DNA of 64,000 bases, from NCBI GenBank assembly GCA_017410425.1, contig JAFQQV010000060.1:921-64920 (forward strand). The letters are read 5' to 3'. This stretch comes from Oscillospiraceae bacterium. GTDB lineage: Bacteria; Bacillota; Clostridia; Oscillospirales; Oscillospiraceae. The notes beneath the pieces were generated by a model that saw only the letters and a list, made by a program, of their open reading frames with translations, was not told where the DNA came from and searched no databases. A program made the translations under genes and the position numbers. Positions 699-7,621 of this stretch are shown one piece after another; position 1 is the stretch's first letter, and each line of letters opens with the position of its first letter.

Positions 699-737
699 AA
701 AAGCCCTATCCAAAAGGATAGGGCTTTTCAATTTGGT
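699..737. repeat. Distal copy of a 39 bp perfect direct repeat (aaaagccctatccaaaaggatagggcttttcaatttggt); putative att site of the ssrA islet
   Basis: Read directly: 699..737 is identical to 3179..3217. The flanks diverge upstream; downstream, after a 1-nt offset, both copies continue with ggag. Confidence 0.9.
702..729 (+). terminator. Rho-independent terminator hairpin after gatD (lies inside the repeat)
   Basis: agccctatcc-aaaa-ggatagggct stem followed by TTTT; A-run on the other side. Confidence 0.65.
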
Positions 738-807
738 CGGAGTGTAATTATGGGGTTTAAATAAACCCAGTAAAATCAATGGTTTACAGGTTTTTAGTTT
801 GAGGGGA

Positions 808-2592
808 TTAGTATAGTAAATATTTGTCTAACAAATTAGATATCGATTCATAGGTGTTATATGTATATTTTATTTCAATCAGCTTAAAACCGAGTTTTTT
901 TGCAAAGCTATGTTTTCTGCGGTCGTGCTCTACTTGTCTCTTGAATTGAATTTCACCACCAAAAAAATCACATGCTTGAAAATGTTGAATACCTTGATAT
1001 TCGATAAGAATGTATGTGTTTTCCCCGGTTGGGATAGCAAAATCATATGATAGCAAACCATTGCGCGTGCCATACAATGAATCAAAAGTTTTTTGATAAA
1101 AATACTTTATTTTATGATTATCTAAATATTTTCTAACAAGTTGTTCACCGTTGGATTGCTCTATGTATGGACAGCCAGCGTTGTTATATGTGCGGTCAAT
1201 GATTGACGCTTTCCATTCAAAAGTATAGTGTTCTCCTGTTTTAGGGTTAGTGTATGGTAACAGCCACCAAACCTTCTTATTGCTTCCCGCTGTAACATTT
1301 GTCGGTTTCAAACTTTGATTTTTTTCAAAATGCCATTCTTTTGCGAGTTCCGGATGAGTAGTTGACAAATCATTAAAGCCCTCTAAAACCGCTTTTCCGG
1401 AAATATATGGACATCCTGTGTTATCAGCCGTTCGATATGCAATTCTAGCTTGCCACTCAAAATCAAAGTGCTTTCCCGTTTTAGGATCATCATATGGCAA
1501 ATACCACCAAACGTTGTTCATACTATATTCGAGGACGTGGCTTGGTAATAGTTTTCCATTTTTCCGTGGATGCCATTGAGCTGCTAAACTAGGTCTTCTT
1601 GTTAATAAATCGTTGAAACCAGGCCATGCTGCGGCGTTATTTAGAAAAGGACAGTCTGCAGATTTGTTTGCCCTGTTATTGATGTTGGCTTCCCATTCAA
1701 AGTCAAAATGTTTTCCTGAAATTGGGTCATCATACGGTAACATCCACCAAACTTTTTTATTCATACCAGCTGAGACATCACTTGGGGTTAGACCGTGGTT
1801 TTTGGTGGGATGCCATTCTTTGGCTAGCTCTGGATGGGTTGTTGCTAAATCATTATATCCTATGAATAATGCTTTTCCTGAAATGTAAGGACAATTCCGC
1901 CCCTCGCTTCTATGTACAATGGTATCCTCCCATTCAAAATCAAAGTGTTTTCCTGTTTTTGAGTCATCATAGGGAAGGTACCACCAGACTTTTTTTCTGC
2001 TTCCTGCTGAAAAATTTATTGGCTTTAGCTTTCCGTTCTTAGTAGGATGCCACTGCTTAGCAAGTTCGGGATGAGTTGTTTCCAAGTCGTTAAAACCATT
2101 CCATACTTCTTTTCCTACTAGGTATGGACAAGTGTGTCCGTTGGTACGATAATAAACTTTAGCTTCCCATTCGAAATCAAAGTGCTTTCCAGTTGTTGGG
2201 TCATCATATGGCAACAACCACCATACTTTTTTTGCACTTTTTGATGTAACATCAGATGGTTGCAAAGTTCCGTTTTTGGTAGGGTGCCATTGCTTGGATA
2301 CTTCAGGAAATCGGGTTTGAAGATCATTAAACCCACGCCAAAGTGCTCTGCCAGAAAGAAACGGACAATTCTGGTTATGCTTTGTTCTATTTATTACTGC
2401 CATTTCCCATTCAAAATCAAAATGATTTCCTGTGATAGGATCGTCATAAGGGAGATACCACCAGACTTTTTTTCTACTTCCAGAAGTAATTTCTGTTGGT
2501 TTAAGATTCCCGTTTTTAGTAGGATGCCACTCTTTTATCAATTCTGGGTTTGTAGTGGACAAATCATTGAAACCGATCTCAATCCTAGTCAT
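808..2592 (-). CDS. Six tandem degenerate treble-clef (DUF4379-like 'probable zinc-ribbon') repeats fused to a C-terminal Vsr/DUF559-like PD-(D/E)xK nuclease-fold domain
   Basis: ORF 808..2655. Preferred start is ATG 2592 (MTRIEIGFNDL), with AGGAGA at 2605-2610. Six 74-80 aa repeats follow the pattern (F/Y)NDLxTxxPxLxxxWHPxKNxxLxP..KKVWWxLPYDDPxTGKHFDFEWE..CP(Y/F). The C-terminal ~115 aa carry GEQLVRKYL..LSYDF..ILIEYQGIQH..HDRRK..KLIEIKY. Confidence 0.8.
   Translation of the reverse strand: MTRIEIGFNDLSTTNPELIKEWHPTKNGNLKPTEITSGSRKKVWWYLPYDDPITGNHFDFEWEMAVINRTKHNQNCPFLSGRALWRGFNDLQTRFPEVSKQWHPTKNGTLQPSDVTSKSAKKVWWLLPYDDPTTGKHFDFEWEAKVYYRTNGHTCPYLVGKEVWNGFNDLETTHPELAKQWHPTKNGKLKPINFSAGSRKKVWWYLPYDDSKTGKHFDFEWEDTIVHRSEGRNCPYISGKALFIGYNDLATTHPELAKEWHPTKNHGLTPSDVSAGMNKKVWWMLPYDDPISGKHFDFEWEANINNRANKSADCPFLNNAAAWPGFNDLLTRRPSLAAQWHPRKNGKLLPSHVLEYSMNNVWWYLPYDDPKTGKHFDFEWQARIAYRTADNTGCPYISGKAVLEGFNDLSTTHPELAKEWHFEKNQSLKPTNVTAGSNKKVWWLLPYTNPKTGEHYTFEWKASIIDRTYNNAGCPYIEQSNGEQLVRKYLDNHKIKYFYQKTFDSLYGTRNGLLSYDFAIPTGENTYILIEYQGIQHFQACDFFGGEIQFKRQVEHDRRKHSFAKKLGFKLIEIKYTYNTYESISNLLDKYLLY
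1156..2571 (-). repeat. Coding tandem repeat array, six units of about 237 bp
   Basis: Protein-level periodicity of 80, 79, 79, 80, 80 and 74 aa, counted from the ORF translation. Confidence 0.85.
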
Positions 2593-2691
2593 AAAAATAA
2601 TGGTTCTCCTTATTGGTAGAGCATAAATTTTCCTTATTGCAAGAAACAACAACATCAGCTTTCAAAATATTATCTAATGTTATATTTAATA

Positions 2692-2719
2692 ATTATAACA
2701 AAACACGACAAATCGTCAA
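2692..2719 (-). promoter_or_regulatory. Sigma-A-type promoter for the repeat-nuclease gene
   Basis: Minus strand reads TTGACG (2719-2714), a 16 nt spacer, then TATAAT (2697-2692), about 100 nt upstream of ATG 2592. Confidence 0.5.
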
Positions 2720-2837
2720 CAGAATCAATTAGATGAACAAAAAGATGTTTTTTGTTCGACATAGAGTAAAATTGAAAGTCTGTTCGTAGAAATAAAGTGT
2801 TAGTTGTTTTTTCTTTGATAACAATAATGTAACACAG

Positions 2838-3155
2838 TGGGGAATCGACCTGCGCTGCGGCGCAGGCCGGGTCGCGGCTCTGATATCCGCTTTGCCACAA
2901 TTACCATTTCTGCTTCACTTTCGTTCGCCGAAATGGTGTGGCTGCAGAAATTGCCCGTCGGCTCAATCTGCCACTGGCAGTGCCAACAGGCAATTCCCCC
3001 GGCACGTCATTCACTACCGCTCGTGTTTGAGCAGACGAGATGGGAGGGAATCGCTTGCATTCTTTTTGCAAACAAAAAGAATATATGTATTCACCGGTGT
3101 GGGCACCGGTTCATGCAAGCCCCACCGGGGCTTGCGGACATGATTCGATTCCCCA
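2838..3155. ncRNA. Candidate structured RNA or DNA element of unknown family (strand undetermined)
   Basis: A GC-rich block inside the AT-rich islet. An 11 bp closing stem pairs tggggaatcga (2838-2848) with tcgattcccca (3145-3155). At least seven internal hairpins: 2849-2866, 2904-2936, 2949-2995 (inner 2968-2980), 3020-3039, 3059-3082, 3093-3110 and 3115-3135. The only ORFs here have improbable composition. Confidence 0.4.
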
Positions 3156-3178
3156 GCACCCCTGTCTATGCCAAATCA

Positions 3179-3217
3179 AAAAGCCCTATCCAAAAGGATA
3201 GGGCTTTTCAATTTGGT
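3179..3217. repeat. ssrA-proximal copy of the 39 bp direct repeat
   Basis: Identical to 699..737. It covers the last 4 nt of tmRNA (ACCA) and the ssrA terminator. Confidence 0.9.
3182..3209 (-). terminator. ssrA rho-independent terminator
   Basis: Same hairpin as at 702-729. On the minus strand it is followed by TTTTTGATTT. Confidence 0.7.
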
Positions 3218-3562
3218 GGAGATGGGGGGAGTCGAACCCCCGTCCGAAAGCACTTTAACAGAAACTTCTCCGGGCGCAGACGGTTATTTACATTCCCTCA
3301 TCCAGGCGGGAATCGTCACCCTCAAGGAATCAGTAGCTTCATGATGCGTGGAACGCTCAAAGCTTTGCGAACTCACGTTCACCACTAATCGACGCCCCAT
3401 CCCGGGCCGTGGTACTCCCGGGTGGAACGCTCGCTATTATGCAGCGAGGAGAACAGACTTGTTGTTGTTCTTTAATTTATAAGTTTTACCCATTTTAAGG
3501 ATGTTAGGCGCATCCGCCCGCTATTCCTGCCTCCACACCCCCGTCGAAACCTTTACATCCCC
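3214..3562 (-). ncRNA. ssrA: tmRNA (transfer-messenger RNA)
   Basis: The minus strand starts GGGGATGTAAAGGTTTCGACGGGGG and ends GGGGGTTCGACTCCCCCCATCTCCACCA. The internal tag frame GGT AAA ACT TAT AAA TTA AAG AAC AAC AAC AAG TCT GTT CTC CTC GCT GCA TAA TAG gives (A)GKTYKLKNNNKSVLLAA. smpB lies upstream on the same strand. Confidence 0.93.
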
Positions 3563-3633: not shown

Positions 3634-4152
3634 TCAGACCTTCTCAGGTTCAGGATACTCCATGCCGAAAGTCTCAACAGTGACTTTCTTCATGACCTGG
3701 GGAGTACGGGGCTTGTCGTTGTAGTCGGTGCGGACGCGGCAAATCTGGTCCACAACTTCGATACCCTCAATGACCTTGCCGAAGGCTGCATACTGACCGT
3801 CCAGGTGGGGGGCATCCTCATGCATTACAAAGAACTGGCTGCCGGCGCTGTTGGGCATCATGGAACGTGCCATGGACAGGACGCCGCGCTCATGCAGCAG
3901 GGGGTTGTTGAAGCCGTTCATCTTGAACTCGCCGCGGATGGAGTATTCGGGACCGCCCATGCCGTTGCCGAGGGGATCGCCGCCCTGAATCATGAAGCCG
4001 GGGATAACGCGGTGGAAAATCAGACCATCGTAAAAGCCCTTGGAAACAAGGGAGACAAAGTTGTTGACGGTGTTGGGAGCAAGCTCGGGATAGAGCTCAG
4101 CCTTCATGATGCTGCCATCTTCCATTTCAAAGGTAACAATAGGATTGCTCAT
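3634..4152 (-). CDS. ppiB: Peptidyl-prolyl cis-trans isomerase, cyclophilin type
   Basis: FHRVIPGFMIQGGDP and SMARS..NSAGSQFF cyclophilin signatures; 172 aa. Confidence 0.9.
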   Translation of the reverse strand: MSNPIVTFEMEDGSIMKAELYPELAPNTVNNFVSLVSKGFYDGLIFHRVIPGFMIQGGDPLGNGMGGPEYSIRGEFKMNGFNNPLLHERGVLSMARSMMPNSAGSQFFVMHEDAPHLDGQYAAFGKVIEGIEVVDQICRVRTDYNDKPRTPQVMKKVTVETFGMEYPEPEKV

Positions 4153-4628
4153 CAGTAGTTCCTCTCTTTCATAGCTCTGTCGATATCGCGCTTGGACTGG
4201 CGGTCAGCCTCGCTGTCCCGCTTGTCATGCAGCTTTTTGCCCTTGCACAGGCCCAGCTCAACCTTTACACGGCTGTCCTTGAAGTACAGGGACAGGGGGA
4301 TGAGAGCTACGCCGTCCTGCATGACGCGGGCGTGAAGCTTAAGAATCTCACGCTTGTGCATCAGCAAACGTCTGGGGCGCACAGGGTCTTTGTTGAAGAT
4401 ATTGCCGTGCTCATAGGGGCTTATGTGCATGCTGCGCAGGAAAAGCTCACCATCCTTAACGGTGCAGAAGCTGTCCTTCATGTTCACCTGGCCGGCCCTG
4501 ATGGACTTGACCTCGGTGCCTGCAAGCTCAATACCGGCTTCATAGCGCTCCAGCACGAAATATTCATGAAAAGCTTTGCGGTTTTTTGCTATTTCTTTTG
4601 TTCCGCTCTGTTTGGCCACCGGTCTCAC
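4152..4628 (-). CDS. smpB: SsrA-binding protein SmpB
   Basis: KNRKAFHEYFVLERYEAGIELAGTEVKSIR and the C-terminal basic tail are typical of SmpB. Its stop overlaps the ppiB start. Confidence 0.92.
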   Translation of the reverse strand: MRPVAKQSGTKEIAKNRKAFHEYFVLERYEAGIELAGTEVKSIRAGQVNMKDSFCTVKDGELFLRSMHISPYEHGNIFNKDPVRPRRLLMHKREILKLHARVMQDGVALIPLSLYFKDSRVKVELGLCKGKKLHDKRDSEADRQSKRDIDRAMKERNY

Positions 4629-6835: not shown

Positions 6836-7621
6836 ATGAAGATTGCTGTTTTTGCCAGTGGTTCCGGCGGCAACTGTATGTTGCTTTCCCATAAGGATTC
6901 TCATATTTTGATCGACGCCGGAATCTCAATGCGCAGGATTGAAACATCTTTGCGCAGCCAGGGCCTTACAGTTAATGACATCGGCGGAGTGCTCATAACA
7001 CATGAGCACTCCGATCATATTTCAGGGCTTAAAATGCTTCTCAAGCACCATGGGGTTGAGGTTTTTGCACCCCGCACCGTGGCGGCAAGACTTCGCGGCA
7101 TGCTTCCTGAAATCGAGGATCATCTTACTGTTCTGCCTGTGGGCATAGAATTTAAGCTTGGAGAATTTACTGTCAGGGCCTTCCACACACCCCATGACAC
7201 GGATGAGAGCGTGGGTTACAGGATTGAGGGAGGCGGCAGCTTTGCCCTTGCAACGGACATGGGCTGCGTTACTGATGAGGTGCTCTCCGGGCTCCTGGGC
7301 GCTAATACTGTACTAATAGAGTCAAATCACGATGTTGCAATGCTCTGTGACGGGCCTTATCCGGTGCAGCTTAAGCGACGTATTCTGTCAAACCACGGTC
7401 ATCTTTCCAATGTGGACTGTGCAAGACTTGTAAGGCACCTTGCCGACAGGGGAACCCGCCGCGTTATATTGGGGCATCTGAGCAAGGAAAACAATCGCCC
7501 CGGTATTGCCATGGCGGAAAACGGCCATGCGCTTATGGGCAGCGGAGCAGAGCTTTTCTGCGCGCCGGTGTTCGGCTGTCTGGAACTTGAAACTGAGGAG
7601 GATTTGCAATGCTTGCTGTAA
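6836..7621 (+). CDS. MBL-fold metallo-hydrolase (YycJ-like)
   Basis: THEHSDH (HxHxDH) motif; 261 aa. Confidence 0.8.
   Translation: MKIAVFASGSGGNCMLLSHKDSHILIDAGISMRRIETSLRSQGLTVNDIGGVLITHEHSDHISGLKMLLKHHGVEVFAPRTVAARLRGMLPEIEDHLTVLPVGIEFKLGEFTVRAFHTPHDTDESVGYRIEGGGSFALATDMGCVTDEVLSGLLGANTVLIESNHDVAMLCDGPYPVQLKRRILSNHGHLSNVDCARLVRHLADRGTRRVILGHLSKENNRPGIAMAENGHALMGSGAELFCAPVFGCLELETEEDLQCLL

Follow-up and report, generated by a model that had tools for sequence, protein, structure and literature searches.

What is the compact, hairpin-filled block that lies between the transfer-messenger RNA (tmRNA) gene ssrA and a gene with DUF4379 repeats in a 64,000-nt stretch of Oscillospiraceae bacterium DNA (contig JAFQQV010000060.1; the whole stretch is termed the window below)? 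The block occupies positions 2838-3155 and was originally predicted, from its letters alone, to be one structured non-coding RNA of about 318 nt, or a structured recombination or replication site, travelling with the neighbouring repeat-nuclease gene. The analysis described here points to a different composition. With high confidence, which applies to family assignment and anatomy jointly, the block is regarded as two adjacent members, designated M and N, of multi-copy families of small hairpin cassettes located behind transfer RNA (tRNA) and tmRNA genes, collectively t(m)RNA genes.

The block and its two cassettes

The borders of the block and its 11-bp terminal pairing were confirmed, with TGGGGAATCGA at 2838-2848 and its complement TCGATTCCCCA at 3145-3155, and so were the internal hairpins CCTGCGC/GCGCAGG (2849-2855 and 2860-2866), ACCGGTG/CACCGGT (3093-3099 and 3104-3110), GCAAGCCCC/GGGGCTTGC (3115-3123 and 3127-3135) and ATTCTTTTTG/CAAAAAGAAT (3059-3068 and 3073-3082). 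Compared with dinucleotide shuffles, the 318 nt folded with z = -6.7 on the plus strand and z = -9.3 on the minus strand, and none of 100 shuffles equalled the native fold. The rise in G+C content was borne out, from 0.28-0.40 in intervals over 1-2800, which cover the neighbouring gene and its promoter region, to 0.50-0.53 across the block, but there is no separate GC-rich island, the level being that of the downstream host DNA. The block contains no credible open reading frame (ORF), as originally stated, since the overlapping ORFs are short and spurious or extend into the tmRNA gene. It is present once in the window, where no internal repeat of it was found. The lack of a matching family was also upheld by a covariance-model search of the window with Rfam 15 (4227 models), a check proposed with the original prediction, in which no hit in the block reached the gathering threshold and only the tmRNA scored. 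A tmRNA identity for the block was likewise considered and rejected, as RF00023 and RF04321 matched only 3214-3562, and nothing was returned in the block at E up to 10 with the sole exception of 18 nt drawn into a permuted-tmRNA model alignment anchored on the real tmRNA.

The assignment to M was provided by the covariance model R1, built from an alignment (A3) of 49 non-redundant M copies, which produced a single match in the window of 114.6 bits (E 1.7e-26) covering model positions 1-131 of 131. The location is that of the whole family, with the tmRNA gene (3214-3562), the terminator (3179-3213) and the arm (3144-3162) following one another in the same orientation. The 5' arm of M contains, in inverted form, the acceptor 3' strand, the T-stem 3' strand and the T-loop, and CGATTCCCTCCCATCTC at the 3' junction copies the T-loop, T-stem and acceptor strand of the tmRNA directly. 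A canonical M closes on the internal motif copy CGATTCCCT inside 3037-3058 and not on the outer arm at 2838-2848; the arms of the window copy have diverged, pairing perfectly over 11 nt with 2838-2848 and over 9 bp with the 3' arm inside 3037-3058. Folded alone, the M unit forms a 9-bp closing helix (P1) and a 6-bp acceptor-like outer helix (GGGGUG/CAUCUC), with z = -6.4 on the tRNA-sense strand versus -4.0 on the other strand.

A second M copy within 2838-3040 was considered as well, and R1 found none; nhmmer and blastn revealed family N there instead. Homologous N units in L102, L120 and L101 (compared sequences carry L numbers) have in common with the window the blocks CGAGCGG.AGTGAATG and CAGAGCCGCGA...GG and the hairpin CCTGCGC-CGCA-GCGCAGG, which in L101 reads CCTCCGC/GCGGAGG, a compensated pair, and an exact 22-mer is shared by the window N, L102 and L120. 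The hairpin directly abuts the T-loop copy (TCGA.TCC...). The plan of N is the same as that of M, comprising terminator, inverted arm, core and direct 3'-end copy; the window N has no terminator or 5' arm of its own, and its internal hairpin region is enlarged (~2883-2995). In L102 (tRNA-Ala) and L120 (tRNA-Gly), the tRNA is followed first by the N unit and then by M; in L101, N comes after M. In L102, the N unit with its own terminator is located between tRNA-Ala and the terminator-arm-M unit, which occurs alone in L139.

Because the block comprises two cassettes, its 11-bp terminal stem is the pairing of the M 5' arm (3145-3155) with the N 3' arm (2838-2848). The stem is therefore real but joins two units rather than closing one element, and both of its arms are, judged by their sequence, derived from a T-loop/T-stem of tmRNA type. 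The hunch of a tRNA-like end was apt, as the ends of the block are inverted and direct copies of the tmRNA T-loop/T-stem, and the claim of a structured non-coding RNA stood as far as the non-coding nature and strong structure are concerned, but not as a single 318-nt RNA.

The M family and its covarying core

The M sequence recurs at the same site behind the tmRNA terminator of Ruminococcaceae RUG11086 (L015), where a perfect 24-nt repeat of the 3' end of the local tmRNA closes it, and a second, truncated copy is located 2.3 kb away. A metagenome scan with an exact pattern taken from the core shared with L015, GAATCATGTCCGCA-N12-18-TGCAT, reached at least 120 loci, and the hairpin signature was present in 77 distinct copies among the 123 matches listed on them. 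Homologue collection and a covariation check, which had been suggested as a follow-up, yielded the M family from 49 copies with abundant compensatory changes. Screening of 2.9 million viral contigs with the exact M pattern plus hairpin revealed no family member (three contigs matched the pattern only), the N pattern had zero exact matches in the same contigs, and blastn in 'distant' mode of the window block against phage and plasmid records gave only chance matches of 30-40 nt. In twelve canonical M loci, Rfam 15 hit only tRNA, signal recognition particle RNA and the tetrahydrofolate riboswitch, all outside the module, and the module of L139 matched no family at E up to 10. No description of the cassettes was encountered in the literature searched, the core string included, which is absence of evidence only; the cassette families are widespread and apparently undescribed.

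In most copies with enough flank, ARAGORN placed the 3' end of a tRNA gene ~50-55 nt upstream of the core. The upstream tRNAs are of at least ten kinds (Ser, Ala, Gln, Arg, Thr, Lys, Gly, Pro, Leu and Glu), and the tmRNA takes this place in the window and in L015. M is oriented like the upstream gene in every copy, and the order of the unit is constant: the gene 3' end (...TTCGAATCCnnnnn...CCA) and an A-run/T-run terminator hairpin are followed by a 5' arm that repeats this gene end as its reverse complement, then by GAATCATGTCC, hairpins 1, 2 and 3, TGCAAGC, and a direct copy of the gene end that spans T-loop to CCA and often carries a terminator. The core, consisting of the invariant GAATCATGTCC and three covarying hairpins, measures ~100-115 nt.

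The 5' arm is complementary to the 3' end of the neighbouring gene over 10-21 nt. In the apparently young copy L210, the arm has the full 20-21 nt including TGG opposite CCA, so that gene end, terminator and arm constitute one long perfect palindrome. The T-run of the terminator ends ~20 nt before the core in most copies, a spacing predicted by a full-length inverted copy abutting the terminator. The arm of the tRNA-Ala unit reads ...GACGGAGGG, the exact complement of the 3' strand, and differs from the tRNA's own 5' strand (GGGGGCG...); the arm is therefore a copy of the 3' end and not the residue of a deleted tRNA. The T-loop-to-CCA direct repeats measure 21-25 nt in most members and 21-73 nt overall, and those of young copies include the terminator (73 nt in L189 and 68 nt in L204). 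The 5' arm follows the proximal copy at 23 sites and the distal copy at 30, with no clear preference. Arms and repeats were found only where the module is present among 66 distinct tRNA loci, which were ascertained via M and are accordingly not independent.

The first downstream ORFs of 40 copies, inspected by eye, are unrelated and apparently ordinary genes, varied in kind and orientation. By eye and with no family search, no integrase, reverse transcriptase or transposase was apparent beside these 40 copies, except for an IS30-like (insertion sequence) transposase at L111. One M copy (L191, 723-2190) is broken inside hairpin 2 by ~1.35 kb encoding the N-terminus of an IS3-type transposase, and the 3' end of the module resumes at +1461. 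Changes in loop length shift the reading frame between copies, indicating that M is not a peptide gene.

RNAalifold resolved four helices, the arm pairing P1 and the three hairpins, with compensatory changes in 28 of 37 pairs across the 49 copies. The inverted and direct copies pair with each other, so that the core lies within a four-way junction closed by a stem. Of 1782 cells, 98.2% are paired, compared with 79% in column shuffles and 33-49% with slid partners; 327 cells hold double (compensated) changes, and none of 500 shuffles reached the observed covariation. Hairpin 1 shows one-sided changes in none of its nine pairs, and its alleles recur at different tRNA types. Part of the P1 covariation is built in, each arm being a copy from the neighbouring gene. 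The arm and the distal copy of L097 and L101 have, however, diverged jointly from the tRNA sequence, so the closing stem is maintained in its own right. The 1243 cells of the inner three helices include 1229 listed as Watson-Crick, 4 G-U and 5 A-C, demonstrating neither wobble tolerance nor strand asymmetry by G-U versus A-C. Strand specificity shows in one feature of M: on the tRNA-sense strand, hairpin 2 has a tandem G-A at its base, for which variant copies substitute Watson-Crick pairs. The invariant single-stranded segments are GAATCATGTCC, GAATAC and TGCAAGC.

Further unit types are found in the arrays of L194, L214, L156 and L201. In L194 (1756-1930) and L214 (1639-1790), arms and repeat span the whole T-arm, with the motifs GCGAAGCGG. 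In L156 and L201, the interval from the tRNA to M holds a repeat in which ATCCGCTTCGCTCAAA...CCCCTCTCGCGCTC occurs and which closes with ...TTTAGTGTAAAGGTTAGACA ahead of a terminator.

Proposed mobility, rival explanations and known systems

Islands and prophages classically settle at the 3' ends of t(m)RNA genes. On balance, and with confidence only slightly above even, the cassettes are taken to be non-autonomous mobile DNA elements of gut and rumen Clostridia that occupy the immediate 3' flank of t(m)RNA genes. Signs of mobility include hairpin-1 alleles common to different tRNA types, the 68-73-nt repeats of young copies, the IS3 interruption of one copy, tandem modules (L125), two M copies on one contig (L154 and L168), the stacking of different families behind one gene, and distal partial units in which an arm and 3-20 nt of M are followed by unique DNA; partial units or 3'-truncated copies are exemplified by L189, L204, L198 and L210. 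The cassettes would use the T-loop region of t(m)RNA genes as insertion site or as copying template, the insertion would regenerate the gene's 3' end and terminator, the target-matching arms would be templated by the local gene, and the hairpins would serve as cis-acting structures on the tRNA-sense strand. Alternatively, a T-loop-specific recombinase acting in trans may move the cassettes.

Confidence in any specific mechanism of spread is low, and two routes can be envisaged. In the first (route a), a unit of 3' end, terminator, arm and core would integrate at the T-loop as islands do, which is favoured by the minimal T-loop-to-CCA repeats of 21-25 nt, by the unlike terminators on either side of most copies, and by the arrangement of L102 versus L139. 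In the second (route b), a cassette would be born replicatively: a strand end would fold back on the terminator hairpin and copy the gene 3' end into the arm, switch at the conserved TTCGAATC of the T-loop to a donor core, and switch back at the TTCGAATC microhomology to copy the 3' end and terminator again. Route b accounts for the target-matched arms, the identical terminators of young copies and the palindrome of L210, as well as for distal arm-only remnants and 3' truncations. Both routes may operate, with birth followed by spread. A bolder version, considered rather unlikely, is an element that needs no fixed ends and copies its 'terminal repeats' from each t(m)RNA gene it lands behind, either through fold-back priming at the terminator hairpin with T-loop template switching or through reverse transcription from the tRNA 3' end; such a cassette, closed by a tRNA minihelix, would be able to colonise any tRNA gene, and the near-absence of G-U and A-C pairs would follow from stems re-copied strand from strand.

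Several points weigh against mobility as the explanation. Neither transposition nor excision was observed, nor any empty site or circular form, and a mobilising enzyme is not among the genes identified. The sample was found via M's own pattern and is biased towards its conserved 5' part, and family N comprises four copies only (alignment A4). The fold-back and template-switch route is a reconstruction from the junction anatomy of a handful of young copies; since the terminators differ on the two sides in most copies, an element-borne terminator and site-specific integration would fit better than target duplication. A classical integrase model would, for its part, leave unexplained the inverted arm and the near-identical cores whose arms match more than ten genes. 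Finally, the strong conservation of single-stranded segments and hairpins could equally fit a functional RNA.

The cassettes may accordingly be structured small-RNA genes that act as RNA, a serious rival or an additional layer to which a limited, minor probability is given. Their transcription would come by read-through from the t(m)RNA gene or jointly with it; enzymes that process tRNA or recognise CCA could be recruited by the closing 'top-half' minihelix (acceptor plus T-stem), which ends in CCA; and spread would be secondary, compatible with mobility in the form of a transcribed RNA resembling short interspersed elements or retroelements. The four-way junction with its invariant single-stranded segments and covarying helices speaks for such an RNA, as do the constant orientation relative to the upstream gene, the strand-specific tandem G-A at hairpin 2 with its Watson-Crick substitutes, the terminator-like hairpin after each unit, the better fold of the window M on the tRNA-sense strand and the closing stem kept by co-variation in L097 and L101. 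However, the module sits downstream of a terminator with ~20 nt in between, and the near-lack of G-U pairs in the inner helices, fewer even than A-C, would be unusual in a selected RNA fold. There is no convincing promoter either: the invariant AATCAT taken as -10 with a -35 in the spacer, the best match, reaches 9 of 12 positions in the window, the regional count of such matches is below shuffle expectation, and the terminator T-run explains both the -35 signal and a weak enrichment over 73 copies.

Other accounts bring the block back to known events at the ssrA locus. Islands in tRNA and tmRNA genes typically show direct T-loop-to-CCA repeats and stack in tandem, and contigs of related metagenome-assembled genomes (MAGs) frequently break at tmRNA 3' ends, as would be expected if the blocks were inert attL-side scars of integrase-borne islands or prophages once resident in the t(m)RNA gene and later deleted. 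This is very improbable, because matched arms and a ~115-nt core with compensatory changes are met again behind ten or more kinds of tRNA, neither an integrase nor a phage gene is evident by eye beside inspected copies with downstream sequence, the exact-pattern scans of viral contigs and the phage and plasmid BLAST searches yielded no family match, and the inverted arm is foreign to known att sites. Decay of a tandem ssrA duplicate, to which we attach next to no weight, would explain why the permuted-tmRNA model aligns GGGGUGCUGGGGAAUCGA, at the 5' end of the minus strand, with its tmRNA 5' consensus, why the 3' parts resemble a tmRNA T-arm and acceptor strand, and why the segment of ACCA plus terminator is duplicated. 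The silence of the Rfam tmRNA model in the block contradicts it, and ARAGORN detected no tmRNA in the block or in chimeras with the distal 3' remnant; as the core is the same behind ordinary tRNA genes, the tmRNA-like ends are the family's usual copies of the neighbour's 3' end. Hardly credible, finally, is the originally proposed single 318-nt RNA, or replication or recombination site, of the repeat-nuclease cassette, whose appeal lies in the position next to the gene and the excellent fold of the whole block. The halves of the block occur apart, elsewhere and without the gene, and a 95%-identical copy of the gene lies in unrelated DNA (L011), where homology runs only from GGGTTTATTTAAA at ~757 to near 2770, including the promoter region and excluding the block. 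Together with a tblastn survey of the M-bearing loci for co-occurrence, this rules out linkage between cassette and nuclease gene: only one other M-bearing place (L126/L200, same flanks) encodes a distant relative of 26-32% identity ~5 kb from the module, and L159 has just a 53-residue fragment.

The cassettes resemble several known systems in part. Among the closest are t(m)RNA-targeting islands with tyrosine integrases (T-loop sublocation), which share the 3'-end site, the T-loop-to-CCA repeat, the resupply of 3' end and terminator, tandem stacking and the use of both tRNA and tmRNA genes. The direct repeats of a gene 3' segment expected of islands are present, 39 nt in the window and 21-73 nt in the family, but the integrase expected inside them is not: only the DUF4379 gene lies within 738-3178, and none was seen by eye at the 40 copies. 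The cassettes are also only ~0.2 kb, with neither integrase nor any other gene and no match in viral contigs, and they hold an extra inverted target copy that closes the hairpin core, one core family serving more than ten genes. Miniature inverted-repeat transposable elements (MITEs), repetitive extragenic palindromic and bacterial interspersed mosaic elements (REP/BIME), Correia elements, Rickettsia palindromic elements and BOX elements are likewise small, non-coding, multi-copy and hairpin-rich with compensated stems, and occupy intergenic 'safe' spots beside terminators. Unlike the constant, transposase-recognised terminal inverted repeats and short fixed duplications of MITEs, the cassette arms reproduce the 3' end of whichever gene adjoins them and vary with it, the flanking duplication measures 21-73 nt and not a few bases, and the location is strictly behind t(m)RNA genes in one orientation.

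Integron attC sites and the attP of CTX phage (two inverted dif-like sites) are similar in that inverted target-like copies fold into a target-mimicking duplex, structure and not sequence is kept, and cassette arrays are formed; the present cassettes differ in having conserved core sequences and no R'/R'' or dif motifs, integron integrase or evidence of Xer. The omega RNA of IS200/IS605 and the bridge RNA of IS110 also combine a conserved, structured scaffold with a directly flanking target-matching segment, but the cassettes have no TnpB, IscB or IS110 recombinase gene and no match to HEARO or another Rfam family, and their target-matching segments lie on both sides and pair together. The closing helix of acceptor and T-stem ending in CCA recalls the tRNA-like 3' ends of tmRNA, viral tRNA-like structures and the Mauriceville retroplasmid, with the differences that a ~100-nt core replaces the T-loop, that the 5' strand exactly complements the 3' strand instead of matching the 5' strand of the gene itself, and that aminoacylation, CCA addition and reverse transcription are without support in the cassettes. 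A retron msr/msd was rejected, as no reverse transcriptase gene was recognised by eye beside the window copy or the 40 copies; a closing inverted repeat does exist in the cassettes but derives from the neighbouring gene's 3' end.

A classic t(m)RNA landing pad is taken here by gene-less structured cassettes of 0.1-0.2 kb, which are abundant in gut and rumen Clostridia and present in no RNA or repeat catalogue searched. If they are mobile, the way in which a conserved core gains target-derived ends bears on programmable or template-switch insertion; if they are RNAs, they would represent a new large class with a tRNA-like closing helix. In practical terms, the cassettes explain MAG contig breaks at t(m)RNA genes and are mistakable for pseudo-tRNA, pseudo-tmRNA or att sites, and annotation pipelines should mask or label them.

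Architecture of the window and neighbouring elements

The order around the block is smpB (4152-4628), cyclophilin (3634-4152), ssrA, the block and the DUF4379-repeat gene (808-2592), with all four genes on the minus strand. Relatives of SmpB point to a Clostridium of Oscillospiraceae type as the host. The perfect 39-nt direct repeat brackets everything from the block to the last of these genes, and the minus-strand order across it is tmRNA, ACCA plus terminator (3179-3217), spacer, M, N, AT-rich insertion (~756-2836), CCCCATAATTACACTCCGACCA, terminator (699-733) and gatD (Table 1).

Table 1. Features of the ssrA 3' flank, listed from the tmRNA gene to the distal end of the array
Feature	Coordinates	Strand	Basis or remark
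tmRNA gene ssrA, host gene of the cassettes	3214..3562	-	Rfam RF00023, 150.2 bits, full length; ARAGORN
Segment 'Y', tmRNA T-loop to CCA, CGACTCCCCCCATCTCCACCA	3214..3234	-	Template type for cassette arms; sequence and analogy with the 21-25-nt T-loop-to-CCA repeats of most family members
Direct repeat copy 2, tmRNA ACCA and A-run/T-run terminator hairpin	3179..3217	.	39-nt perfect repeat with 699-737
Spacer from terminator to M, TGATTTGGCATAGACA	3163..3178	-	TTTGGCATAGACA common to the syntenic copy behind the L015 tmRNA
Cassette M, whole	3037..3162	-	Family model and arms
M as matched by family model R1	3041..3158	-	R1 match (score in text)
M 5' arm GGGGTGCTGGGGAATCGAA, diverged inverted copy of a tmRNA 3' end	3144..3162	-	Sequence; family arm pattern
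M hairpin 1, GCAAGCCCC GGT GGGGCTTGC	3115..3135	-	5 of 9 pairs compensated in 49 copies
M hairpin 2, ACCGGTG CCCA CACCGGT, GA/GA at base	3090..3112	-	Alignment covariation
M hairpin 3, ATTCTTTTTG TTTG CAAAAAGAAT	3059..3082	-	9 of 10 pairs covary in the family
M 3' junction, GCAAG and direct diverged copy CGATTCCCTCCCATCTC	3037..3058	-	Canonical partner of the M 5' arm
Cassette N, whole	2837..3023	-	Homologous units in L102, L120 and L101
Cassette N parts: core CGAGCGGTAGTGAATG..., expanded internal hairpin region (~2883-2995), CAGAGCCGCGACCCGG, conserved hairpin, 3' arm	2837..3023	-	
N conserved terminal hairpin CCTGCGC CGCA GCGCAGG	2849..2866	-	Identical in L102 and L120
N 3' arm TCGATTCCCCAC, direct T-loop/T-stem copy	2837..2848	-	Pairs with 3145-3155
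AT-rich insertion with DUF4379 gene and promoter region, not cassette	756..2836	-	Pfam DUF4379; L011 homology
CCCCATAATTACACTCCGACCA, putative leftover from the 3' portion of the final direct copy (cf. tmRNA CCCCCATCTCCACCA)	734..755	-	Sequence similarity
Direct repeat copy 1, ACCA and terminator, distal array end	699..737	.	39-nt repeat; compare L189 (73 nt) and L204 (68 nt)

The unrelated AT-rich insertion with the DUF4379 gene appears to have come later and to have interrupted the last direct copy of the tmRNA 3' end; it sets CCCCATAATTACACTCCGACCA (734-755) apart from 2837-2848. The AT-rich DUF4379 cassette, promoter included, behaves as a separately mobile unit and seems to have landed inside this copy with CCCCA at both junctions, which may represent a 5-bp duplication. 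Pfam DUF4379 matches the encoded protein in six stretches (E 4.7e-69), and the C-terminus is nuclease-like, the protein combining treble-clef zinc-ribbon repeats with a PD-(D/E)xK-like part; a promoter-like site is located upstream of the gene at 2719-2692. The gene is the sole one between 738 and 3178, and it gives only a sub-threshold Arm-DNA-bind_1 score. The protein family is very large, with 7989 of 8000 scored candidates at E <= 1e-10.

The tag peptide proposed for ssrA by ARAGORN, ASVPPGSTTARDGASISGEREFAKL, looks wrong. A reading by eye, AAG AAC AAC AAC AAG TCT GTT CTC CTC GCT GCA TAA TAG, gives ...KNNNKSVLLAA followed by two stops, which is a typical form of tmRNA tag.

Independent assemblies of the same or close strains break at window positions 766 and 2868 (L002 and L003), at the edge of the AT-rich cassette and in the N hairpin, and at window position 3522 (L005), inside the tmRNA gene. 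The tmRNA 3' end is also the exact end of many MAG contigs; repeats or strain variation at these sites would fit such breaks. In the related species L014, L016 and L017, M and N are absent after the tmRNA terminator and a different structure stands in their place, in which inverted CTTCACT.TTCACTCTTCAC / GTGAAGAGTGAAG repeats flank a partial second copy of the terminator, which makes the tmRNA 3' flank a hot spot for small repeats of several kinds. Between the cyclophilin gene and the tmRNA, L015 carries three copies of a ~60-nt repeat (AAGAACGTAGGGGAGGGGCTTGCCCC.TCCCGTAC...; 7000-7400), whose GGGGAGGGGCTTGCCCCCTCCC hairpin recurs beside modules in L114 and L186.

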